Below are positions 990-16,930 of a stretch of 16,930 bases of DNA, in pieces (the first letter of the stretch is position 1; every line of letters begins with the position of its first letter). The position numbers and the translations under genes are program-made. The DNA is from a virus (lineage: Duplodnaviria > Heunggongvirae > Uroviricota > Caudoviricetes). Under the pieces are notes generated by a model that saw only the letters and a program-made list of their open reading frames with translations, searched no databases and was not told the origin of the DNA. The stretch is taken from the IMG/VR virus record IMGVR_UViG_3300000279_000019; one strand, written 5' to 3'.

Positions 990-2588
990 TTACCAATTAA
1001 AAATATAATCTTTTATTTTAAGATACATATCAACTTTCCCAGACCATTTTGATGCACTCTCTTTCATCTTTTCAATAACATCATCAATCAGTAAGTCTCT
1101 TCCTTTTACAATCAATTGATCATCATCAATACCCTCTGGTGCAAATTCATATATGTGCATGCTTAGATTAGACTTCTGAGTATGAGGGAATGAATCTTTT
1201 TCCACACACATATCAATAAACTCATTAATAGATAGTTCTTTCTGTTTACACATCATAAGTAATAATTCGAACTCATCAATTGTTATATAGTAAATTCTTT
1301 TTAGATCAATGGGGATACTATGATATTTTTCAGATAACTCAGTTGATAAATCAGGGTTAATAAAATCCTGCACAACCATTGCATTTGATATATGATGATC
1401 CCGATGCACCACAATTAACATTGAATCTTTCGAAGATGGTTTTCTCATCTCTATTTTATTTAAGTTAAAAGCACATTCCTGACCTTGATAAATCCCTTTA
1501 ATAAAACTCTTATTCAACCTTTCCTTTAGCAACTGAGCATTATTAGATGTTTTAACGAACTTTGCAGGCTCTATTGCCTTCGAGTCAATATAAACTATTG
1601 AATCTCCCTCTGAAATAACAAAATCTACGGACTTGCAATTTTTTATTGCATTATCACTATAAATCCTCTTAACCTCCCTTTCAGTCTTAAAGTTATAATT
1701 GTACTTATCAAGAAAGCGAGAAATATAAAGTTCCATCGTCTTACCAAATTTTTCTTTATAAGATTCCTTATAGACCTGCTTGAACAATTCTGGAACTAGG
1801 TTGACAAACCCTGACTTCATGATTCTTTTGCATAATATCACTACACCATCGCCATCTAAAAACATTGGTTTACTGAGGAATGGTGTATCTTCATAATACT
1901 CAGCGGTAATGTTTTTATCCAATTTATATGGGGCAATAAAATCTCTCACACCATCAATTTTTAAGCATGTTAATTCCAAAAATCTTTTCACTTGTTCCGG
2001 ACCAAATATCGGAACCAAGTTTATTATCAAGTGTTTAAATGGAATAACCTCTGATTCTATATCAGGATTAATACATGAAATAGCGGTAAAATAACATGCC
2101 ATTTTGTAATAGTTTTCCAAATGTAAACCAGTACATTCTAAAAACTTATCTTTATAATATGATTCATCATTCAAGCAATACCAAATATACTGTCTTGTTA
2201 ATGAATTGGCATTAAATTTATCAGTTGATTGATAAAGCAACTGATTTATCACCATTCGTCTAAGGCTTAGCATAACTTTATCATCAACGATTAAATTAGA
2301 TGCTTCTAGTTGCAAGTTATAGATTAAGTTGATAATATCAACAAAATCATTTTTACTCATTTCTTTTGCAGGCTTTTTTTCCTTCATGCAAAACTTCCAT
2401 TTCATTGCCAGATAGCAACACCAAGGGAAATTGGAAACAATACCCACCTCGACATCCCTTACTTTTTGGAAGTGTTCATAAAAATTTCTCAAAAAAGAAA
2501 CATCACTAAAATATGACAATCTTTTCTTAATCGCATCAACTTTTATAGAATATGACACTGGTGTCATTGTTTTTATTGCCACGCTCAT
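990..2588 (-). CDS. Hypothetical 532-aa protein, AT-rich cargo gene, no family recognised; possible PD-(D/E)xK-like motif
   Basis: Longest ORF in the window with ATG start and AAGG about 8 nt upstream; K/N/I/Y-rich composition from AT-rich DNA, in contrast to the roughly balanced backbone; segment VDFVISEGDSIVYIDSK resembles a D...(D/E)xK nuclease core; no Walker A motif seen. Confidence 0.75.
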   Translation of the reverse strand: MSVAIKTMTPVSYSIKVDAIKKRLSYFSDVSFLRNFYEHFQKVRDVEVGIVSNFPWCCYLAMKWKFCMKEKKPAKEMSKNDFVDIINLIYNLQLEASNLIVDDKVMLSLRRMVINQLLYQSTDKFNANSLTRQYIWYCLNDESYYKDKFLECTGLHLENYYKMACYFTAISCINPDIESEVIPFKHLIINLVPIFGPEQVKRFLELTCLKIDGVRDFIAPYKLDKNITAEYYEDTPFLSKPMFLDGDGVVILCKRIMKSGFVNLVPELFKQVYKESYKEKFGKTMELYISRFLDKYNYNFKTEREVKRIYSDNAIKNCKSVDFVISEGDSIVYIDSKAIEPAKFVKTSNNAQLLKERLNKSFIKGIYQGQECAFNLNKIEMRKPSSKDSMLIVVHRDHHISNAMVVQDFINPDLSTELSEKYHSIPIDLKRIYYITIDEFELLLMMCKQKELSINEFIDMCVEKDSFPHTQKSNLSMHIYEFAPEGIDDDQLIVKGRDLLIDDVIEKMKESASKWSGKVDMYLKIKDYIFNW

Positions 2589-3714: not shown

Positions 3715-4296
3715 TTATCCCGTTTTAGTGACTAACCATTGCAGAATAACGATAATTAAATATGTTAATGTGCCAGTTCCAAGAAGTATTAATAATTGAT
3801 AGCAACGTAGGGCAATATTACTAATCGATTTTTGCATCACGATATTCACTGGCTCAGCCACACACTCTTTAGATCTTATCGATAGAATACTTGGAACTTC
3901 TCTATTTATTGATAATATTTCACATTGAATAGACTCACCAGGTGCAAGGCTTTCAAACTTGATAATATAGCGACCATCCTGTTCAATATTTTCTTCAAAA
4001 TGGTGGACAGGCCAAAAATTAATATGCATTGGCTTATAGTTAAAAACCAATGAGATATTAGTAGCACTTTCTCGCCCTTCATTAACAAGAATAATAGATC
4101 GTGTATACACCAACTGTGAATTAGATATTACCTCACCATTGGCATTCCGTAAGGGTTCATTGAGAAGAAAAGTAAATCCATGCTGATAACCATAGGATAA
4201 CTTTGCCTTGCTTTTAAATCTGTTATTCAGTATCCATGTTAAAATCGTTATAAAAAAAGAAAATAGTTCTTTCCCATAAAGACTAAAAAAACTCAT
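3715..4296 (-). CDS. Hypothetical membrane protein (193 aa) with N- and C-terminal hydrophobic helices, AT-rich cargo
   Basis: GAAGGA SD 6 nt before ATG 4296 (GTG at 4299 also in frame); hydrophobic stretches FSFFITILTWIL and LLILLGTGTLTYLIIVILQWLV flank a roughly 140-aa soluble domain; AT-rich like the 532-aa gene. Confidence 0.65.
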   Translation of the reverse strand: MSFFSLYGKELFSFFITILTWILNNRFKSKAKLSYGYQHGFTFLLNEPLRNANGEVISNSQLVYTRSIILVNEGRESATNISLVFNYKPMHINFWPVHHFEENIEQDGRYIIKFESLAPGESIQCEILSINREVPSILSIRSKECVAEPVNIVMQKSISNIALRCYQLLILLGTGTLTYLIIVILQWLVTKTG

Positions 4297-4430
4297 CACA
4301 CATTTCCTTCAGTAATCTGATTCTGCTGTCAAAGCTACCAGCACTATAGTCATTCATCCACATTGCGACAAGAAGGTTACAGCACGTCCAATCACACCTT
4401 AGGAAATCTTAGGGGGCTGGTTGACACTTT

Positions 4431-4696: not shown

Positions 4697-5224
4697 TCAT
4701 TGATGGTCTGATTTTTCCCACTCAGCCAGGGCGTTTAACCCGGCTTCACTCCATGATTCCGGTTCATCGGGATAATCACCTGCAACATAGCAGAGTTCGC
4801 AACGCAGCATACGAATTGCCAGCCTGGCATTACCTCGCAAATTGTATTTTTCAAAGTAATGCTGCCCTTCATCATCCTCAAGGCAGATAGCACCATCATC
4901 AAGAAAGTGCACTTCCCAGCCTAATTCCCCGGCTGCATACAGCACACGCTGCTGTATGCCCTCGTCCGTTACTGGCGCAGGAATTTTACCGTCTCTGGCC
5001 TTAACTGCTTTCCAGAACTCGCCCCATGTCATTTCCAGCGTTCTTTCTGGCCACATTTCAGAAATGGTGCCTTTCCCCTGTGCTGGTGGGCTGTTCCGCT
5101 GCTCTGTCGCTTCCACATCAATTTTTTTACCGGACATGACCACTTCGCCTTTCTCGAGCCAGTCGTAAACTGTCTGGCGGCTTACGCCTTTGTATTTGGC
5201 GTATTCGGCTTTACTCATCAACAT
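4697..5224 (-). CDS. DNA-binding protein with N-terminal lambda Nu1-like (terminase small subunit-type) winged HTH; possible packaging-redirection or regulatory protein
   Basis: GAGGTGA SD 5 nt upstream of ATG 5224; N-terminus SKAEYAKYKGVSRQTVYDWLEKGEV closely parallels Nu1 KKQLADIFGASIRTIQNWQEQGMPV; acidic C-terminal half. Confidence 0.55.
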   Translation of the reverse strand: MLMSKAEYAKYKGVSRQTVYDWLEKGEVVMSGKKIDVEATEQRNSPPAQGKGTISEMWPERTLEMTWGEFWKAVKARDGKIPAPVTDEGIQQRVLYAAGELGWEVHFLDDGAICLEDDEGQHYFEKYNLRGNARLAIRMLRCELCYVAGDYPDEPESWSEAGLNALAEWEKSDHQ

Positions 5225-5323
5225 GTAGCTCACCTCATGCATATACGATAAAAAATAATTTCATGCGGAAAGGGAATGCGTTGTGGGTATGGAGGAAAGG
5301 GGCAATAACCGCCCCTTACTGAT

Positions 5324-5760: not shown

Positions 5761-5924
5761 GATGATCCCTTCTGAATGACAATAATTGCAATTATTGCAC
5801 AAATTGAAATGATACCAGAGACAATTGCAATAAATGAAACGAAAAGCATCAATAAACCAACCTTCGGCACTGAATGCTCTGATTTTTCTGCAAAGGTATG
5901 GCAGATGTTGGTGCATGCAAACAT
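5757..5924 (-). CDS. Possible small hydrophobic membrane peptide (start uncertain)
   Basis: ORF ends with ATGA overlap onto the 55-aa gene; C-terminal 30 aa MLFVSFIAIVSGIISICAIIAIIVIQKGSS is one TM helix; candidate starts GTG 5996, ATG 5924, ATG 5849 all have weak or no SD. Confidence 0.3.
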   Translation of the reverse strand: MFACTNICHTFAEKSEHSVPKVGLLMLFVSFIAIVSGIISICAIIAIIVIQKGSS

Positions 5925-6038
5925 AAAGGCAATAGCAGAAGAAGCAGCGGGGAGTGAAAAGGGGAAGTTTTTATAAATACACGATTGTCGCCTCACTGCA
6001 GGTTAACAGCCACAAGCTCCATGATAATAACTTGTTAA

Positions 6039-6362
6039 TTATTTCATCAGATTTTTCATTATTTGCGCGATTGAGTACACAAGCAAAAACTCGGCAGCCG
6101 CAAGAGTATAAAAAACATAAATTCGCTTAGCCCACCGACGATGAAAGAACTCCTCAGCATGGCCGGATGTTCGAGATACAAGCCATGCACCTACTGCACA
6201 CAGAGCAGGTGCAATGAGCACAGTTATAAACCAGATTGTGATGCCCATCCCATGCCTACTGATAATAGCCATTGGTATTGCAAAAATGAATGTTAGAGCA
6301 GCATTAGCTAATAGAATATCTTTTAAAGTATTTTCAATTAGTTTTGCTAGATTATCTTTCAT
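6039..6362 (-). CDS. Small inner-membrane protein (107 aa, about 3 predicted TM helices)
   Basis: ATG 6362 with GGGGGA SD; hydrophobic segments LLANAALTFIFAIPMAII, ITIWFITVLIAPALCAVGAWLV, IYVFYTLAAAEFLLVYSIA. Confidence 0.65.
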   Translation of the reverse strand: MKDNLAKLIENTLKDILLANAALTFIFAIPMAIISRHGMGITIWFITVLIAPALCAVGAWLVSRTSGHAEEFFHRRWAKRIYVFYTLAAAEFLLVYSIAQIMKNLMK

Positions 6363-6393
6363 CTAATCCCCCACGTTGAACATTAATATATAA

Positions 6394-6414
6394 AAGCCCC
6401 TTACTAAGGGGCTT
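6394..6414 (-). terminator. Intrinsic terminator-like hairpin downstream of the lipoprotein gene
   Basis: aagcccctt / act / aaggggctt GC-rich stem; on the minus strand it is followed by TTTTATATATT. Confidence 0.5.
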
Positions 6415-6426
6415 TGCACGGATTGT

Positions 6427-7569
6427 TTAAAGGGAACTTTTTTTCGCCCCTTCAATTTCTGCCTGACAAATTTCGTCATTTGTAAATGAGTACTGCAGAT
6501 AGACATATCCCTGAGTGGAATTGTTCGCTCTGGCCTCAATAGATATAGTATCAATATTGTTTTTTAATGGTATTTCTTTTGTTCCCTTCCATGTGGCAGA
6601 TAAGAAGCGTTCTTTTTTGTTTAGCCCCCTCATCCAGTCCTGAGGATCTTTCCAAATTGAACCAGCCAGCAAAAAGTCTGTAGTATCAGCCTTTCCATAC
6701 AGAGAACTTAAAGAATTACTCAATTCTTCAAACTTGGATTTAAGAGCCAATCCATAGCTATCAGTATCAATATTTTTTCCTAAAGCCCGTATTTGACATA
6801 AACCAGCTTTCGGGGAGATCAGCAAACCATACATTTCAAAATCTGCGTTTTGCTTCGGTAATTTATCAGAAGTATACAGATTCACACTGTCTGGTAGTGG
6901 CTTGAGCTTAGCACCGATCATATCTTCGATGTTTTTCTGTGTAAGACCGGCTTCTAAGCCAAACGGACCATCCGCTGGCGGGAGTAAAGGAAGTTGCTCT
7001 TGGGAATTTTTGGCTGTTACTTCCGTTTCAGTACTGTTTTTTGCGTCATTAGCTTGTACTGATGCCAGCTTAACTTCAGCGAGGCCATACTTGGCTGTGA
7101 GGTACTTTTGCTGCAACATTGCCATGGTCTGCTCTTCAGTGGCAACAGTAGATAATTTTAGTACCTTTATCAGACCACCACTATACTGACGAGCATCAGC
7201 TTTGGCTTCGTTGATTTTTGCATCTAAGCTGTCAATTTCAGTTTTAATTGAAGCCGCAAGCTCAGGATCAGGTTTTACTCCAGATACAACAACATCAATT
7301 TTGGCACCTGATTCAATAGCATTAATACGCTGTTCCAAAAGCGCTTTATTAGTTCCTAATATTTCCAGTCTTGCTGTTGTCAGATTTTTTATCAACCCAC
7401 CAGAAAACTGCTGGTCAACTTCCTTAGCTGCTGATATTTCACCTTCCGTTTGCGACAGTTCAGCTTTAAGAGCAGCTACTTCCTGTTTCTGTTCTGGAGT
7501 TAACTCTTCTGGCCCACATCCGGTTAACATTACTATACCGACTAATGTTGCAATTAAAGTTTTATTCAT
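6427..7569 (-). CDS. Lipoprotein (380 aa) with coiled-coil N-terminal half and internal repeat
   Basis: Signal peptide MNKTLIATLVGIVMLTGC with lipobox L-T-G-C; repeated motif Q(F/Y)SGGLIK(N/V)L; long alpha-helical, charged region; C-terminal domain of unknown type. Confidence 0.75.
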   Translation of the reverse strand: MNKTLIATLVGIVMLTGCGPEELTPEQKQEVAALKAELSQTEGEISAAKEVDQQFSGGLIKNLTTARLEILGTNKALLEQRINAIESGAKIDVVVSGVKPDPELAASIKTEIDSLDAKINEAKADARQYSGGLIKVLKLSTVATEEQTMAMLQQKYLTAKYGLAEVKLASVQANDAKNSTETEVTAKNSQEQLPLLPPADGPFGLEAGLTQKNIEDMIGAKLKPLPDSVNLYTSDKLPKQNADFEMYGLLISPKAGLCQIRALGKNIDTDSYGLALKSKFEELSNSLSSLYGKADTTDFLLAGSIWKDPQDWMRGLNKKERFLSATWKGTKEIPLKNNIDTISIEARANNSTQGYVYLQYSFTNDEICQAEIEGAKKSSL

Positions 7570-7703
7570 ATCCCTATTCCAAATGAAAATATTCAGATTA
7601 ATCTTATCAGGAACCCAGATGCAATTGAATATTCATCTGCTCAGCAACGTAGTAGATTTCCTCAGAAAGCATCAACAAAAAACCAAGAGAATCCCATCCT
7701 CTG

Positions 7704-7991
7704 TTACTGACTACAATTGTTCTTTTTTTGGTATTTCCTGAATGCCTCACCATTGGGCTGATGTAATCCCATCCCGGCATGTGCCCGGCTGATGGTTTCG
7801 CGCATCTCCCCGAAATTATCCTGCCTTGCTGGTGGGCGTGCTGCCTTGTGGATACATTCCGCGCGACGTTTTGCCGCCTGTTCCCGTGCCTTGTCATCAT
7901 TCGCCAGCATGATGACCTCAGCCCACCGCGCCGCCGCTCTCCGGTACAGACCACGCGCTTCCAGTGCTTCCGCTTTGCTGTCGTGAATCAT
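7704..7991 (-). CDS. PerC-like small transcriptional regulator (95 aa)
   Basis: ATG 7991, 4-nt overlap with the FinO-like gene stop; segment AEALEARGLYRRAAARW and C-terminal MGLHQPNGEAFRKYQKK resemble what I recall of the PerC/Pch family; assignment from memory only. Confidence 0.5.
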   Translation of the reverse strand: MIHDSKAEALEARGLYRRAAARWAEVIMLANDDKAREQAAKRRAECIHKAARPPARQDNFGEMRETISRAHAGMGLHQPNGEAFRKYQKKNNCSQ

Positions 7992-8530
7992 GCGCCTATT
8001 GTCTCCTTTGCTGCCCGGCGCTGGCGTTTGCGCTTCTCATTCAGCGCCACCAGCCGCGTTTCTGCGTCCTGTTGTTCCTGTGGTGTCACCTCGCCGCACG
8101 GCTGGCCTTTCAGGTCGTAGCGTACCCCACCAGCCATTAAGGCGCGGTAATAGCGCGGACACTGCGCATAAGATGCCAGCGTCGCACGCAATGCCCCTGG
8201 CCCGAATGCCAGCCCCCTGACGGCGAGATCCTGCATCAGGTCGTCGAATATCCCCACCTTAAGCGGCTTCAGTGCTTCCCGGCTGAATAAGTCAGGCCAC
8301 AACTCAGTGAGGCGGTTAACGCGCCTGCGGTTTTTGCGCTGGCGTTTGGTCATATGCCGCCACGGTGTCGCCCCTGTAGGCTTCTGCTGCGCTTTCTGGT
8401 TACCGGGCATCACTTTATGCGCCGATGTGGTTTTATCCTGCTCCTGTGCCGCCTGCGTCGTTTTCTGCGGCGTGCCGTAAATACCTTTTGGTTTTCTGTT
8501 AATGGTCAGCTTAGTCATGCTTTGCCCCAT
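7988..8530 (-). CDS. FinO/ProQ-domain RNA-binding protein (180 aa) with basic N-terminal extension
   Basis: Segment LTELWPDLFSREALKPLKVGIFDDLMQDL...LRATLASYAQCPRYYRALMAGGVRYDLKGQPCGEVTPQE aligns by eye with the ProQ N-terminal domain (LAERFPHCFS..ARPLKIGIFQDL...LRSALRLYTSSWRYL...RVDLDGNPCGELDEQ); alternative start ATG 8518. Confidence 0.7.
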   Translation of the reverse strand: MGQSMTKLTINRKPKGIYGTPQKTTQAAQEQDKTTSAHKVMPGNQKAQQKPTGATPWRHMTKRQRKNRRRVNRLTELWPDLFSREALKPLKVGIFDDLMQDLAVRGLAFGPGALRATLASYAQCPRYYRALMAGGVRYDLKGQPCGEVTPQEQQDAETRLVALNEKRKRQRRAAKETIGA

Positions 8531-11783: not shown

Positions 11784-12000
11784 GGTGCACCTCCTGTACA
11801 TCAGCCATGATAATTTTTCCGGCCTTATCCAGTGCCTGATCGGCTTTCAGCTGCACAAATGCTAAATAATGGGAGATGCATTCTGATTCTCTGGCTGCGT
11901 GTTTATGCGCCACACCAGCGATAGCAGAAATCTCAATAAGTGAATCCATCAGCGTTTTGATAGCGTCTACCGCTGCATCAGGCCATGTTGCATTACACAT
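11776..12000 (-). CDS. Hypothetical protein (74 aa)
   Basis: ATG 12000 in an ATGTGTAA overlap with the upstream gene stop; coupled to the next gene by ATGCATAA. Confidence 0.5.
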   Translation of the reverse strand: MCNATWPDAAVDAIKTLMDSLIEISAIAGVAHKHAARESECISHYLAFVQLKADQALDKAGKIIMADVQEVHHA

Positions 12001-12358
12001 GCTCCACCTCCTGGCGAATACGGGCAGCGAATACCATCACGCAGCCATCAGGAGATTGCTGGCGTGCTTCCTGTTCGCTGGTGGCCTCGATGTGAATCAC
12101 GCGCGGTTGTGCCGTACTCAGGGCGATAAAACGCCAGATAAAATTGTTTTCGCATTTCTGAATAAACAACGTGTTTTCTTCGCGCCCTTTCCATGTTGCC
12201 GAGATATAGCCCATGTCATTGAGCATCTCGCAGGCATCAACCAGCGTATCGGCGGCTACATGAACAGTGTTTTTACCGTCAGCCATGCAATCACGGTGCA
12301 CCGCCAGGAAGGTGTATATAAATTTAGGGTGAGTTTGGGTATGCTGTGCCCCAGCCAT
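11993..12358 (-). CDS. Hypothetical protein (121 aa), first gene of the replication operon
   Basis: ATG 12358 with GAGGT SD about 5 nt upstream, located at the C-terminal end of a 512-aa open frame whose upstream part I consider spurious; product MAGAQHTQTHPKFIYTFLAVHRD... Confidence 0.5.
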   Translation of the reverse strand: MAGAQHTQTHPKFIYTFLAVHRDCMADGKNTVHVAADTLVDACEMLNDMGYISATWKGREENTLFIQKCENNFIWRFIALSTAQPRVIHIEATSEQEARQQSPDGCVMVFAARIRQEVEHV

Positions 12359-12447
12359 AATCGTTACCTCATTTAACGGTTTGGTTAGACGCCCCGCTAC
12401 TGCCGCAAACAGTTCGGGGCGTTGTCGTTTATATCCTCTTACTGAGG

Positions 12448-12523
12448 TGTGATTTAAATTAAATTTAACTGAATCACAGGTCAAGTATTTTTTGTGATTC
12501 TTTTTTGTGTATACTGAATCACA
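12448..12523. promoter_or_regulatory. Two dyad-symmetric operators TGTGATT-N17-AATCACA in the divergent promoter region
   Basis: TGTGATT 12448-12454 / AATCACA 12472-12478 and TGTGATT 12493-12499 / AATCACA 12517-12523, 45 bp centre to centre; TATACT -10-like hexamer at 12510-12515; sits between the divergent RHH-like gene and the replication operon. Confidence 0.55.
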
Positions 12524-12545
12524 TCTTTTGTTTAGGAGAATGCAC

Positions 12546-12851
12546 ATGGCAAAAAACACTATCAACGACAAATCAAAACAGATTTCAATTCGTATCCCAC
12601 ATGATGCTTTTGAAGGCATGGAATCCGTAAAACTGGACGGCGAAAGCAACGCCGGATTCATAGTAACCGCCATGCGTGGTGAGATCGCCCGCCGCCAGGC
12701 AGAAGGAAGCGGAGAAAATCCCCTAGTTTCTTCGCTCAATGCACTGGCGCAGGTGGAAAAAATCGGAGTCAAAGCTGTCGAGGAGATCGGGCAGCTCGTC
12801 ACCGTCGCACGTGAAGAACTCCAGCGCCGCAAGGCCAAAGAATCAGAATAA
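12546..12851 (+). CDS. Putative ribbon-helix-helix-type transcriptional regulator (101 aa), candidate master repressor of the element
   Basis: AGGAG SD 8 nt upstream of ATG 12546; N-terminal KQISIRIPHDAFEGM resembles an RHH beta-strand/helix start; only plus-strand gene here, divergent from the replication operon and adjacent to the dyad operators. Confidence 0.55.
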   Translation: MAKNTINDKSKQISIRIPHDAFEGMESVKLDGESNAGFIVTAMRGEIARRQAEGSGENPLVSSLNALAQVEKIGVKAVEEIGQLVTVAREELQRRKAKESE

Positions 12852-13523
12852 TAACTATCATCGCCGTGGTGTGAGGAACTCCGGCGCATTGCTTTACAGG
12901 TACACAGAATGACCAACAAAGAATCGACCAATACACCATCACCGGCACGGAAAAGACAGCGCAGAAAGATAGCGTACGAATATGAGTCAGACAGATTCGC
13001 GCCCTGTGCGTTTATCCTTGAGAAATTCCTTAAAGAGTACAGGCGCACAAAAATGGGGTCGCATACCTGGAAAACATCGCGGCATGGCAATGTTAAAGAG
13101 CAGGAATAGCCCACCAGCAAGCCAGCACACTGATCACATTGCCCACCAGCCGCAAATCTGGCATTGTTGGCGATGTGTTCAAGTGTGTAGCTTTCCCACT
13201 GGTGGCCCTCTGCGGTCGCCTTTGTTTTATCCAGAACGAAATTAGACATCAGATTGATCATCACCTTGCGACCTGACAAAATCGCATCAGTCGCGCCACC
13301 AGCAAAATTTTTTGCTTTCCGGACAGCGTGACCAACGACATTTTGCAGCAAAATATTCTGCATTTCTGGCGTGCTGTAGTAACGGTGATCAGCGCCTTCA
13401 CTCTGTGCGACCACAACGCTATAATCTGCCTCGTAGACAGTAAGCAATATGGCGCAGTAGGCTATTCGTTCACAAAGGCGCTCCGGCAACGGGGCGCTTT
13501 CTCTTTTTGTAACGGTCAGAGCG

Positions 13524-14372
13524 TTACACATGGCTGTTTTCCTCCATGCGACGGGCTAACCAACGCTGCGAAAGACGAATTAATTCAGCTTTCCGCTGGT
13601 GGTAGTCCAGGCCTAACTCAATCAGCGTGATATTGCTCTGCTCAAGGTAAGAAAGGTGCTCAAGCTGCAACGTGCTCATGTGGTCGCGTGGTTCGCCTGT
13701 GATGCCGTTCGCCTGCGTCCACTGTTTTGCAGTCATGCCACCCAGCACGATACGCGCCAGCATATTGGCTTCCGTGGTGTAGTGGTGCTGGAGTGTGTTT
13801 TTACCCAGTTCAGCCCGGTACGCCTCCAGCGCGGCACACATCGGCTTAAAGTAGCTGGCAACGGAGATACGGGCTTTCAGTTCCCGGCGTAACGCTGCGG
13901 AACGCACTGGCGCTACCTTGTGTAGCTCCTCCTCGCATTTGATGAAGTACTGACGAACGGCGCGGCCCTGTTCGGTGCGCTCGACCATCGCCAGTTCTTT
14001 CGCCATGTTCGTGGAGATCAAATAGTCTTCACTGCGACGATCACCGCCGCGCTTTGTTGTCCAATCAAAATCAAACTGTTCAATATTTACACTTTGGTTC
14101 CCCCGTTTCGGGGAATCAAAGTACAAATTATCTACAACTTCAAAATCCACGCCCTTTTTAAATCCGTACTCATCAATGCGTCCTTTAATCCAGGTTGTGA
14201 AATCACGCTTCACACCCAGCGCCTTATGCAACGCTCTGGCGCTAACAATATTGGTTTCACGTCCGCCAATAACGCCGGAAATAACCGGGATAATTTCGCC
14301 GAAATTTTGCAGATTCTGGTTTTCAGGCCGAACGAAGCCCTGCCCCTGTACGGGCGTTTTTCGCTGTTTCAT
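13524..14372 (-). CDS. AntA/AntB-type antirepressor-like protein (282 aa)
   Basis: ATG 14372 with AGGAG SD; segment IIPVISGVIGGRETNIVSARALHKALGVKRDFTTWIKGRIDEYGFKKGVDFEV and later MAKELAMVERTEQGRAVRQYFIKCEE match the AntA-family pattern as I recall it. Confidence 0.65.
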   Translation of the reverse strand: MKQRKTPVQGQGFVRPENQNLQNFGEIIPVISGVIGGRETNIVSARALHKALGVKRDFTTWIKGRIDEYGFKKGVDFEVVDNLYFDSPKRGNQSVNIEQFDFDWTTKRGGDRRSEDYLISTNMAKELAMVERTEQGRAVRQYFIKCEEELHKVAPVRSAALRRELKARISVASYFKPMCAALEAYRAELGKNTLQHHYTTEANMLARIVLGGMTAKQWTQANGITGEPRDHMSTLQLEHLSYLEQSNITLIELGLDYHQRKAELIRLSQRWLARRMEENSHV

Positions 14373-14450: not shown

Positions 14451-14648
14451 TCAGGTAGCTGTTCCGCGTGATTCCGCAATACGCTGATTAATCCACTCGT
14501 CAATTTCACTCTCAACGAAAGCAATAGCTCGCGAGCCAATTTTAACTGATGCAGGAAATTTACCTTGCCCCATAAGGCGATAAATCCATGCCTTGCTATA
14601 TCCAGTTCTACGCTGAACTTCCGTTAAACGAATAAGAGAGTTTGCCAT
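14451..14648 (-). CDS. alpA: AlpA-family regulator / excisionase (65 aa)
   Basis: AAGGTGA SD; LIRLTEVQRRTGYSKAWIYRLMGQGKFP...VESEIDEWINQR aligns with E. coli AlpA ILRLPAVIQKTGMARATIYDWL...IEAEIDEWLSQR. Confidence 0.8.
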   Translation of the reverse strand: MANSLIRLTEVQRRTGYSKAWIYRLMGQGKFPASVKIGSRAIAFVESEIDEWINQRIAESRGTAT

Positions 14649-15718: not shown

Positions 15719-16930
15719 TCACCCGCATTTTCCGAACTCACCATGCACCACATTTCCGCCATGCTCGAGCGAATCCATATAGTCGGCATACCACTGGAGC
15801 ATCTCCCGGCGACCATCCAGATATTGCGCATGGTTGTATGTGCCACGAATTGAGTTTTTATCGACGTGTGCGAGCTGTGTCTCTATCCACGCGGTGTTAT
15901 AGCCCTGCTCATGCAAAATGGTGCTCATGGTGTGCCGGAATCCATGACCAGTAACCTTTCCGTTATAGCCGATGCGTTTAAATACTTGGTTTATGCTAGC
16001 CTCGCTCATTGTTTTCCTTGGATCATTACGGCCGGGAAACATAAGCGGATAATTGCCAGTTAATTCTTTAATCTGCCCAATAAGCGAAAGAGCCTGCTTA
16101 GACAAAGGCACCACATGAGGGCGACGCATTTTCATCCGTGAAGCAGGTATCTCCCAGATAGCCTTGTTGAGATCGATTTCATCCCATAATGCACCGCGCA
16201 GTTCGCCAGTCCGCAAACCGGTGATAATCAGTAGACGAGCCGCCATAACAACCAATGCACTTCCTGAGTAACTGGACAATGCCTTGAAAAAATCAGGTAA
16301 TTCTTTGGCTGTGAGGAAAGGATAATGATTAGATTCATGACCTTGCATCGCGCTGGTGAGATCCGGTGCAGGGTTATACTCAGCACGTCCAGTGACAATT
16401 GCATAGCGGAAAACTTCCCCGCATCGCTGCCTCACTTTTTTGGCTTTTTCGGTAGCACCGCGCCCCTCGATGCGCCGCAGCACATTCAGCAGTTCAAGTG
16501 GTTTGATTTCGGCGATTGGTTTTTTGCCAATGTAAGGGAACACATCTTTGTTGAAGGCTTCGAGGATGTCTGAAGCATAACCAGCAGACCATTTTTTTAA
16601 TTTGCTGCTGTGCCACTCAAGGGCAATATCTTTGAAGGTGCTGTTTAACTGCGTTTCCCGGGCAATCTTTTCCTCTCGTTTCGCTTCCATCGGATCGATA
16701 CCCCCAGCGATCCCCCTTTTAGCTTCTTCACGTTTTGCACGAGCATCAGCCAAGGTAACTTCAGGATACACACCTAGTGCTAACAGCTTCTCTTTACCAG
16801 CTACACGATATTTGAAGCGCCAATATTTTCCTCCACTAGGTTTTACCAAGAGATACAGACCACCACCATCAGCCAGCTTGTAAGCCTTCTCTTTTGGCTT
16901 GGCAGTGTCTATTTGACGGGCATTGAGTTT
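15719..16930 (-). CDS. int: Tyrosine integrase, P4-type (5' end runs off the window; start codon found at 45..43 in a circular reading)
   Basis: N-terminal KLNARQIDTAKPKEKAYKLADGGGLYLLVKPSGGKYWRFKYRVAGKEKLLALGVYPEVTLADAR is the conserved P4-integrase N-domain; C-terminal catalytic region with HGFRHT and LAHVD motifs and a tyrosine near the end; the track M at 16849 is an internal TTG. Confidence 0.9.
   Translation of the reverse strand, partial: KLNARQIDTAKPKEKAYKLADGGGLYLLVKPSGGKYWRFKYRVAGKEKLLALGVYPEVTLADARAKREEAKRGIAGGIDPMEAKREEKIARETQLNSTFKDIALEWHSSKLKKWSAGYASDILEAFNKDVFPYIGKKPIAEIKPLELLNVLRRIEGRGATEKAKKVRQRCGEVFRYAIVTGRAEYNPAPDLTSAMQGHESNHYPFLTAKELPDFFKALSSYSGSALVVMAARLLIITGLRTGELRGALWDEIDLNKAIWEIPASRMKMRRPHVVPLSKQALSLIGQIKELTGNYPLMFPGRNDPRKTMSEASINQVFKRIGYNGKVTGHGFRHTMSTILHEQGYNTAWIETQLAHVDKNSIRGTYNHAQYLDGRREMLQWYADYMDSLEHGGNVVHGEFGKCG
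16889..16930. repeat. Terminal direct repeat, copy 2 (identical to 1-42)
   Basis: Exact 42/42 identity with positions 1-42; repeat may extend beyond the window edge. Confidence 0.9.

Follow-up and report, generated by a model that had tools for sequence, protein, structure and literature searches.

Cor, encoded by phages phi80, HK022 and N15, and Llp, encoded by phage T5, are phage-borne lipoproteins of the outer-membrane type, whose genes lie near tail genes and which act from the periplasmic side. They measure ~60-80 residues and their target is FhuA. Bor/Iss and TraT are outer-membrane lipoproteins that are expressed from mobile elements resident in the cell and help their host by conferring serum resistance or surface exclusion, and LpoA and LpoB are outer-membrane-anchored activators of inner-membrane penicillin-binding proteins, encoded by housekeeping chromosomal genes. 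The superinfection-exclusion protein gp15 of phage HK97 is a small inner-membrane protein with a single membrane pass, belonging to the YebO family, and its gene is a moron located between the gene for the tail assembly chaperone and that for the tape measure (PMC3594210). Here, we describe a gene for a 380-aa lipoprotein, and the adjacent gene for a small membrane protein, in a 16,930-nucleotide stretch of viral DNA (Caudoviricetes; IMG/VR record IMGVR_UViG_3300000279_000019), hereafter called the window, which corresponds to a satellite island of E. coli. An earlier reading of the bare sequence, the original prediction, had proposed a surface or exclusion function for these two genes. Our analysis indicates that the lipoprotein gene is mobile accessory cargo that probably benefits the host cell, with phage exclusion as the leading guess.

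The lipoprotein gene and its product

Alignment to sibling satellites placed both genes on an extra piece of DNA of ~1.85 kb, inserted between perC and small backbone open reading frames (ORFs) (Table 1). Compared with the EcPF14 satellite (L017) the extra DNA comprises window positions 5841-7689, and compared with that of strain 258E (L018) positions 5811-7729. Both siblings are without the two genes, yet carry the same ProQ-PerC genes and downstream ORFs, their perC gene abuts a 55-aa ORF, and just 17 or 178 bp are found between the aligned flanks in place of the cassette. The GC content is 0.37-0.44 within the cassette versus 0.46-0.61 in the flanks. The cassette is present in 113 of 5426 complete E. 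coli genomes (2%), and 331 complete E. coli genomes match the surrounding 4-kb region, chiefly via ProQ-PerC. Judged from these alignments, the lipoprotein and the small membrane protein are accessory cargo and not part of the satellite backbone.

To delimit the transcription unit, the 5' flanks of the lipoprotein gene were aligned from 13 different genomic contexts. Similarity starts ~50 nt upstream of the ATG, with unrelated sequence farther upstream, and 11 of the 13 contexts share the block TTCCTGnTA(A/G)GATTAATC...GGGATAGGGAnATG, which corresponds to a TGn-extended -10 element followed by the Shine-Dalgarno region. The extended -10-like motif, TGnTA(A/G)GAT, is situated ~32 nt upstream of the ATG. 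At the other end of the gene, a hairpin and T-tract follow the stop codon in most of 17 contexts (at least 11 by eye), the hairpin sequences differing between contexts. In the window, the terminator scan located this element at 6415-6393, thus between the lipoprotein gene and the gene for a three-transmembrane (3-TM) protein, where the original prediction had placed it; its stem is conserved in Klebsiella, where the loop is different. The lipoprotein gene therefore appears to be an autonomous promoter-ORF-terminator unit, of which the promoter is predicted. Since the promoter-like element, ORF and terminator travel together, differ in composition from their surroundings, and are polymorphic in presence and absence, the gene fits the classical moron definition of Hendrix and Juhala, as summarised in PMC3594210: it lies between genes that are adjacent in relatives, deviates in base composition and has its own terminator. 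Of the remaining feature of the definition, a promoter active in the quiescent element, the extended -10-like motif is a candidate.

The product begins MNKTLIATLVGIVMLTGC, and its signal peptide, MNK-TLIATLVGIVM-LTGC, shows a basic n-region, a hydrophobic h-region and a lipobox (L15-T16-G17-C18) that conforms to the pattern [LVI][ASTVI][GAS]C. The clear lipobox noted originally is thus present, and Gly-Cys-Gly-Pro is invariant across 25 homologues, down to 59% identity. A lipobox-like motif occurs in 208 of the 403 family members with the C-terminal domain. In E. coli, Asp at the +2 position is the signal for retention in the inner membrane. Since position +2 is occupied by Gly19, the protein is predicted to be exported, lipidated at Cys18 and sorted by the Lol system to the outer membrane, where by E. 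coli rules it would be anchored.

The signal peptide is followed by a stalk of two tandem helical hairpins, modelled with AlphaFold2 (AF2) as helices ~25-52/58-87 and 102-126/133-161 with a predicted local distance difference test score (pLDDT) of ~70-80, i.e., medium confidence. At each hairpin turn lies a copy of the motif Q-F/Y-SGGLIK (QFSGGLIK, residues 54-61, and QYSGGLIK, residues 128-135), which is nearly invariant in homologues. Local alignment of the two halves gave a score of 76 versus 27.6 +/- 5.1 for 2000 shuffled sequences (z = 9.4), and none of the 2000 shuffles attained the observed score. The repeat-containing helical region of the original prediction was thereby recovered, but its description as a coiled coil is better replaced by two antiparallel helical hairpins; the best match of the stalk among sequence profiles of the PDB was a designed antiparallel coiled coil (E = 2e-4). 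In a comparison of E. coli with Klebsiella, the ratio of nonsynonymous to synonymous substitution rates (dN/dS) of the stalk is 0.02. The linker that follows contains the most variable columns of the homologue alignment, and its pLDDT is below 50 at model residues 163-193. Its dN/dS is 0.18 versus ~0.05 in the folded domains, and the value for the whole lipoprotein, 0.05 for E. coli versus Klebsiella at dS > 1, indicates purifying selection.

The distinct C-terminal domain that had been noted at the outset folds confidently when modelled alone from a 62-sequence alignment (mean pLDDT 95.4, predicted template-modelling score 0.89). Its invariant residues comprise GPFGL, Y, D, GSIW, R, W and N. 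Cys258 and Cys368 occur together in 38 of the 62 sequences and are mostly lost together, which is consistent with a probable periplasmic disulfide. Stand-alone homologues of the domain bear signal peptides, and together with the cysteine co-variation this supports an extracytoplasmic site of action.

Profile searches with the lipoprotein returned zero Pfam families at E <= 0.01, and in PHROGs, PADLOC (PADLOC-DB 2.0) and NCBIfam only signal-peptide-level matches to LpoB and SA0632 lipoproteins. When 62 diverse homologues of the C-terminal domain were compared to Pfam, PHROGs and NCBIfam, no consistent family emerged, and none of the PHROG and Pfam matches of these relatives carried a lipoprotein or exclusion annotation. 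The domain found chance antibody matches alone among PDB sequence profiles, and a Foldseek search of the PDB with the full-length model gave no match with E < 0.05. Among viral models, the domain was structurally closest to a lipoprotein of Erwinia phage Midgardsormr38 (BFVD A0A5Q2F5G3; Foldseek E = 3.4e-7), with a TM-score of ~0.6 over 180 of 182 residues at 16% sequence identity. The fold neighbours of the domain comprise periplasmic binding or immunity-type proteins besides this phage lipoprotein, a model-based likeness at the level of the fold that is no evidence of membership. Literature searches on PICI (phage-inducible chromosomal island) and lipoproteins, on satellites and exclusion, or by accession gave no account of the lipoprotein.

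Distribution and modularity of the family

The lipoprotein family is widespread in Enterobacterales and is annotated as hypothetical throughout; carriers among E. coli include O104:H4, 55989 and avian pathogenic E. coli (APEC) strains. An exhaustive search found ~2450 clusters at 50% identity that match the 380-aa query via one or both of its modules, and 54 loci were found among IMG/VR viral contigs. In satellites of Enterobacter hormaechei the homologue (69% identity) directly follows the primase gene, and in Klebsiella it resides in a degraded thrW island (88% identity). In lambda-like siphophage prophages, of Xenorhabdus and six further IMG/VR lineages, the gene is located in the tail module by the tape-measure gene (loci L016, L037, L044, L050, L051, L052 and L055), and the same holds for Pantoea and Proteus (L088, L091). 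In L052, it lies between the tail chaperone genes and the tape-measure gene, where HK97 has its gp15 exclusion moron.

In five species representatives, intact orphan copies were found 0.26-1.6 kb downstream of tRNA-Thr(CGT) (L076, L078, L079) or tRNA-Gly(CCC) (L077, L081), both of which are satellite attachment sites. A tblastn search of these loci with two integrase queries gave no integrase, and the orphan copies, which represent five genera, are apparently all that is left of satellites decayed to a single gene. In Enterobacter bugandensis and Pseudenterobacter the gene stands beside proA with the remainder of the island gone, and a Pantoea copy lies in a chromosomal variable region.

The two modules also occur apart. 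Many clusters consist of secreted ~196-aa proteins with the C-terminal domain alone (Marinobacter, Shewanella, Vibrio, Sulfurimonas), and all five stand-alone genes that we inspected lie in mobile or defence-like neighbourhoods: one beside FRG/AAA_13/EVE genes, one in an int-excisionase-polymerase island, one in an integrase/AAA_15/UvrD-DUF2726/ParE island, one adjoining nSTAND3, S8 peptidase and SNF2 helicase genes, and one, encoding 194 aa, ~1 kb past zot, where a filamentous prophage of Vibrio cholerae ends (L013/L014, 7001-7585). The position of the last gene corresponds to that of the accessory toxin genes in CTX-type phages. Conversely, the stalk is fused to the type VI secretion system (T6SS) domain VasI (PF11319, E = 4e-9) in a 365-aa protein (P0191) and, in a plasmid match (H29; Paracoccus, NZ_CP115770.1 71238-71708), to a protein annotated as peptidoglycan-binding, which suggests that the two-hairpin module is a reusable lipoprotein stalk. 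As both modules are found apart and in other combinations, we regard the C-terminal domain as the functional core and the stalk as a delivery or tethering module. In some prophage copies a short linker replaces the stalk, and two such stalkless proteins of 225-238 aa (L053 5842-6558, L055 5881-6558) carry Asp in the +2 position behind the lipobox Cys (LAGCD, LVGCD). This hints that the site of action of the domain can be reached from either membrane. Across the family, the spacer is short in three of four proteins with Asp at +2, but the majority of short-spacer variants carry a different residue there, so that the correlation is a weak hint.

Candidate functions of the two proteins

By analogy with known systems, superinfection exclusion at the DNA-entry step is the most likely function of the lipoprotein, an assignment that we make tentatively. 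It is based on the moron position by tape-measure genes, on the carriage by satellites, prophages and defence-like islands, and on the precedent of Cor, Llp and gp15. Because the gene stays intact and under purifying selection after decay of its vehicle, the benefit would accrue to the cell and not to the satellite life cycle, and such a benefit would account for the retention of the gene once the remainder of the satellite has gone. The mature chain, as modelled, consists of a ~140-residue stalk, a ~30-residue flexible linker and a compact 185-residue alpha/beta domain with a probable disulfide. In the proposed mechanism, stalk and linker would allow the C-terminal domain to operate deep in the periplasm, with an estimated reach of ~8 nm for two stacked hairpins, based on helix lengths, plus up to ~10 nm for the linker. 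There, in a role of binding rather than catalysis, the domain would capture a tail-tip or DNA-ejection component of the incoming phage, or an envelope factor that this apparatus needs, and so prevent non-helper phages from delivering their genomes, to the benefit of the host cell.

Several observations weigh against exclusion. Searches of PADLOC, PHROGs, Pfam and NCBIfam gave no homology link to any known exclusion protein, and tblastn searches of 50,697 phage genomes with the lipoprotein and a diverged prophage homologue gave no match. Moron status would fit a role in serum resistance, toxin immunity or envelope homeostasis equally well. The promoter is predicted from the conserved motif alone, and a generic sigma-70 -35/-10 scan reports no promoter there; read-through from perC is possible, as no terminator precedes the lipoprotein gene. 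Finally, outer-membrane sorting and the reach of the stalk are predictions derived from E. coli rules and from a model of medium confidence (pLDDT ~70-80).

A tethered C-terminal domain could also serve as an immunity protein or inhibitor against a toxin or enzyme that acts in the periplasm, for example an effector of the T6SS or Rhs type, a colicin or bacteriocin, or a peptidoglycan hydrolase such as lysozyme, and would then protect in bacterial competition, not from phage. We consider this unlikely. There are immunity-type proteins among the fold neighbours. Neither an adjacent cognate effector nor recognisable homology to an immunity family, as looked for in T6SS or Rhs immunity, was found. 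About as unlikely is a fitness or virulence factor of lysogenic conversion that is unrelated to phage or toxins and would provide serum or complement resistance (as Bor/Iss/TraT), adhesion, or envelope stabilisation or remodelling in the manner of LpoA/LpoB. Such a role would agree with the strong purifying selection, the persistence of intact orphans after satellite decay in several genera, the presence in the pathogens O104:H4, 55989 and APEC, and a layout of lipid anchor, long spacer and globular domain that recalls LpoB-type regulators in architecture only. However, the gene is patchy (2% of E. coli genomes) and follows mobile elements, not pathotypes, it occurs also in environmental hosts (Marinobacter, Shewanella, Sulfurimonas), and Pfam searches gave no match to Lambda_Bor, TraT or Lpo, the sole LpoB match being the signal peptide. 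A housekeeping lipoprotein, homology to which the original prediction had named as counter-evidence, was rejected because the distribution is patchy and bound to mobile elements, and no such family was detected in Pfam, PHROGs, NCBIfam, PADLOC or PDB sequences. Membership of the Cor, Llp, Bor or TraT families was rejected for lack of homology and the wrong context.

The remaining alternatives involve the 107-aa protein. Its hydropathy profile contains three hydrophobic segments (~16-35, 38-63 and 81-101), in keeping with the small 3-TM protein predicted originally, its gene has a GGGGGA Shine-Dalgarno sequence, and a dN/dS of 0.16 (E. coli versus Klebsiella at dS > 1) indicates purifying selection. 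It had no match in Pfam, PHROGs, PADLOC or NCBIfam, including the families of HK97 gp15/YebO, T4 Imm and P22 SieA/SieB, and tblastn against the 50,697 phage genomes gave none either. A two-component trans-envelope device, in which the C-terminal domain docks on this inner-membrane protein, for example to block injection, would be in line with the adjacent, co-oriented genes with a conserved hairpin between them from E. coli to Klebsiella at dS > 1, and with their joint gain or loss relative to sibling satellites. We nevertheless deem it improbable. The small protein is found together with the lipoprotein in E. coli, E. ruysiae and Klebsiella, but is degraded in Yokenella, is absent beside the 88%-identical lipoproteins of Enterobacter bugandensis and Pseudenterobacter, and is absent from all more distant copies, including all relatives at <=70% identity and the prophage copies; orthologues beside which it is absent or degraded show 62-88% identity. 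Moreover, its family comprises 17 clusters, all Enterobacteriaceae at >=67% identity, versus ~2450 for the lipoprotein domains, it exposes almost no periplasmic residues according to hydropathy, and a terminator separates the two genes. Several lineages have retained the lipoprotein although the small protein has been lost or has decayed there; the small protein is thus no obligate partner, and an obligate pair was rejected on these grounds. Of the original proposal, carriage of an envelope gene by satellites and prophages stands, and it occurs repeatedly at classical moron positions. The lipoprotein and the 3-TM protein are not a conserved pair, and surface exposure, like exclusion, is conjectural. 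The small protein is best treated as a separate, lineage-restricted and faster-evolving passenger of the same insertion, which, by likeness to small inner-membrane exclusion proteins, may block entry as well. Most improbable of all is a lysis cassette for satellite release, composed of a holin-like 3-TM protein and a spanin-like outer-membrane lipoprotein. With its size and three TM segments, the small protein is reminiscent of class I holins such as lambda S107, and an outer-membrane lipoprotein beside a membrane protein is superficially spanin-like, but PHROGs and Pfam gave no holin, spanin or endolysin matches, the element has no endolysin gene, the small protein ends in KNLMK without the charged cytoplasmic C-terminal tail typical of holins, the lipoprotein alone persists in decayed islands, and the prophage copies are in tail, not lysis, modules. 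The holin/spanin cassette was therefore rejected for lack of homology and wrong context.

Exclusion at the entry step could extend beyond this locus. The C-terminal domain may define a large, unrecognised family of periplasmic entry blockers acting on the tape-measure/tail-tip ejection complex of siphophages, in satellites, siphophage and filamentous prophages, and defence islands across Proteobacteria; we consider this wider proposal rather doubtful. In enterobacteria, the domain would be delivered from the outer membrane on a modular helical stalk that can also carry other periplasmic effector domains, such as VasI or peptidoglycan-binding domains. Anti-phage catalogues consist mainly of cytoplasmic nucleases, NTPases and abortive-infection modules, and envelope-level exclusion is under-represented in them; PADLOC-DB 2.0 holds no model that matches the lipoprotein family. 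The gene described here is a well-delimited and tractable member of a domain family that spans thousands of clusters and is without a profile in the searched libraries. If its function is not exclusion, it would still be a widespread envelope factor of lysogenic conversion in O104:H4, 55989 and APEC strains.

The satellite setting and known envelope proteins

Over its full length, the window is 99.4-99.6% identical to islands of strains K56-43-un and APEC E123, and the lipoprotein region is 99.9% identical to that of 55989 and O104:H4 outbreak strains. The island of 55989 is flanked by tRNA-Thr (thrW, beside proA) on one side and by the pao/yagU genes on the other. By gene content, the window is an E. 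coli chromosomal island with the layout of a classical PICI-type satellite, as this term is used in PMC13612085: int, alpA, antA and genes for a primase, ProQ and PerC were identified, the site in 55989 is tRNA-adjacent, and structural and lysis genes are absent. Experimental validation exists for a related PICI at thrW, EcCIMP1 (PMC11773190). Neither the Rfam scan nor the tRNA scan of the window gave a match. The features are listed in Table 1.

Table 1. Positions of the lipoprotein features, the inserted cassette and other genes in the window.
Feature	Position	Strand	Basis or remark
Integrase ORF	15719-16849	-	
65-aa ORF	14451-14648	-	counterpart in 55989 annotated as helix-turn-helix (HTH) regulator
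AntA antirepressor	within the window	-	
Primase, D5_N/DUF5906, 601 aa	8902-10707	-	also Pox_D5
ProQ/FinO	7988-8530	-	
PerC	7704-7991	-	
Accessory cassette, ~1.85 kb, between perC and small backbone ORFs	5841-7689	-	alignment to sibling satellites
Predicted extended -10, TGaTAAGAT (TG 7609-7608, hexamer 7606-7601)	7601-7609	-	conserved block
Purine-rich ribosome-binding region GGAATAGGGA, before ATG at 7569	7571-7580	-	conserved across homologous loci
Lipoprotein gene, 380 aa	6427-7569	-	
Predicted lipoprotein signal peptide, residues 1-18 (LTGC; Cys18 lipidated residue, Gly19 at +2)	7516-7569	-	translation
N-terminal stalk, two tandem helical hairpins, residues ~24-161	7087-7500	-	AF2 secondary structure
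Variable, predicted disordered linker, residues ~162-195, ending LPLLPP	6985-7086	-	AF2 and alignment
C-terminal alpha/beta domain, residues 196-380 (GPFGL and GSIW..P.DWM motifs; co-varying Cys258/Cys368)	6430-6984	-	
Intrinsic terminator AAAGCCCCTTAGTAAGGGGCTTT and T-tract, 10-bp stem	6393-6415	-	terminator scan
Small membrane protein gene, 107 aa; three hydrophobic segments, predicted N-in, basic cytoplasmic loop 64-80	6039-6362	-	translation, hydropathy
181-aa HTH protein resembling small terminase subunit	4697-5242	-	small ORFs before it
GapS1 anti-phage gene, terminal cargo	990-2588	-	NCBIfam NF047931, E = 6e-132

The homologue of the terminal GapS1 gene in K56-43-un and APEC E123 is named gapS1 in RefSeq. 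A 194-aa ORF ~1.1 kb upstream of it (3715-4299, minus strand) encodes a hydrophobic C-terminal stretch and has no family match. The terminal slot differs among sibling satellites (L001 8226-10182; L018 2781-5499; L017 3255-5243; L073 2936-3481; L074 241-786): it holds genes for an AAA ATPase and a DUF4435 protein in 55989, which we take to be the composition of PARIS, for a SIR2 protein in strain 258E, and for an RNA-binding-domain protein in EcPF14. SieB occupies this slot in two islands at tRNA-Gly or other sites. The terminal slot is the defence hotspot proper and is separate from the perC-proximal slot holding the lipoprotein, so that the cassette marks a second variable slot in PICI-type satellites, after perC, besides the known terminal hotspot. 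The left edge of the cassette is spanned by a putative 66-aa ORF (5776-5976, plus strand), hypothetical in RefSeq. The 181-aa protein is encoded downstream of small ORFs, is kept in all sibling satellites, and has an N-terminal HTH_17/excisionase-like motif and a match to the PHROG 'terminase small subunit' (2.2e-6), and is a candidate packaging-redirection (Rpp-like) protein. A 512-aa ORF (11993-13531, minus strand) begins 8 nt inside the end of antA and is antisense to a region with YlcI/YnfO in RefSeq, which at the end of the ORF has a short Icd-like gene on the same strand; the 512-aa ORF is probably an artefactual upstream extension of that gene. The primase slot holds the 601-aa protein in the window versus a 710-aa DUF927 primase in 55989 (L001 15105-17237), and with such different primases in spite of 99.9% identity in the lipoprotein region, the satellite backbone is mosaic.

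When compared with the systems outlined at the beginning, the locus resembles HK97 gp15 in being an accessory insertion of deviating base composition with its own terminator and a predicted promoter that encodes an envelope protein, and homologues of the lipoprotein occupy the same tape-measure-adjacent neighbourhood in at least seven prophage lineages. The two proteins are unrelated in sequence and differ in size and membrane attachment, and exclusion, which is the established role of gp15, is for the lipoprotein a conjecture from analogy. With Cor and Llp it shares the logic of a moron-encoded envelope lipoprotein, but it is five times larger, consists of a helical stalk and a domain without a match in the searched profile libraries, and matches no PHROG or Pfam profile. 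Bor/Iss and TraT are comparable as outer-membrane lipoproteins of resident mobile elements, yet the window protein has no Pfam match and differs from them in size and fold. LpoB and LpoA likewise cross the periplasm by means of a lipid anchor, a long spacer and a globular domain; unlike the window lipoprotein they are chromosomal housekeeping proteins, their spacer is disordered instead of helical, and the detected similarity to LpoB is limited to the signal peptide (17.4 bits versus a cut-off of 110.6). Among the closest known systems are also the Mog1/PsbP-like and 'double-wing' periplasmic proteins (DcrB, LpqN, MTC28, PA1624, RhsI1, YdcD), and the Midgardsormr38 lipoprotein, which is like the C-terminal domain in fold and is also annotated as lipoprotein, but is without the helical stalk. 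Since the features tested for Cor/Llp, Bor, TraT, spanins, holins, gp15/YebO and T6SS immunity proteins were not found, the window protein belongs to none of these families. By analogy, it would work like the known moron-encoded envelope proteins while standing outside their families.

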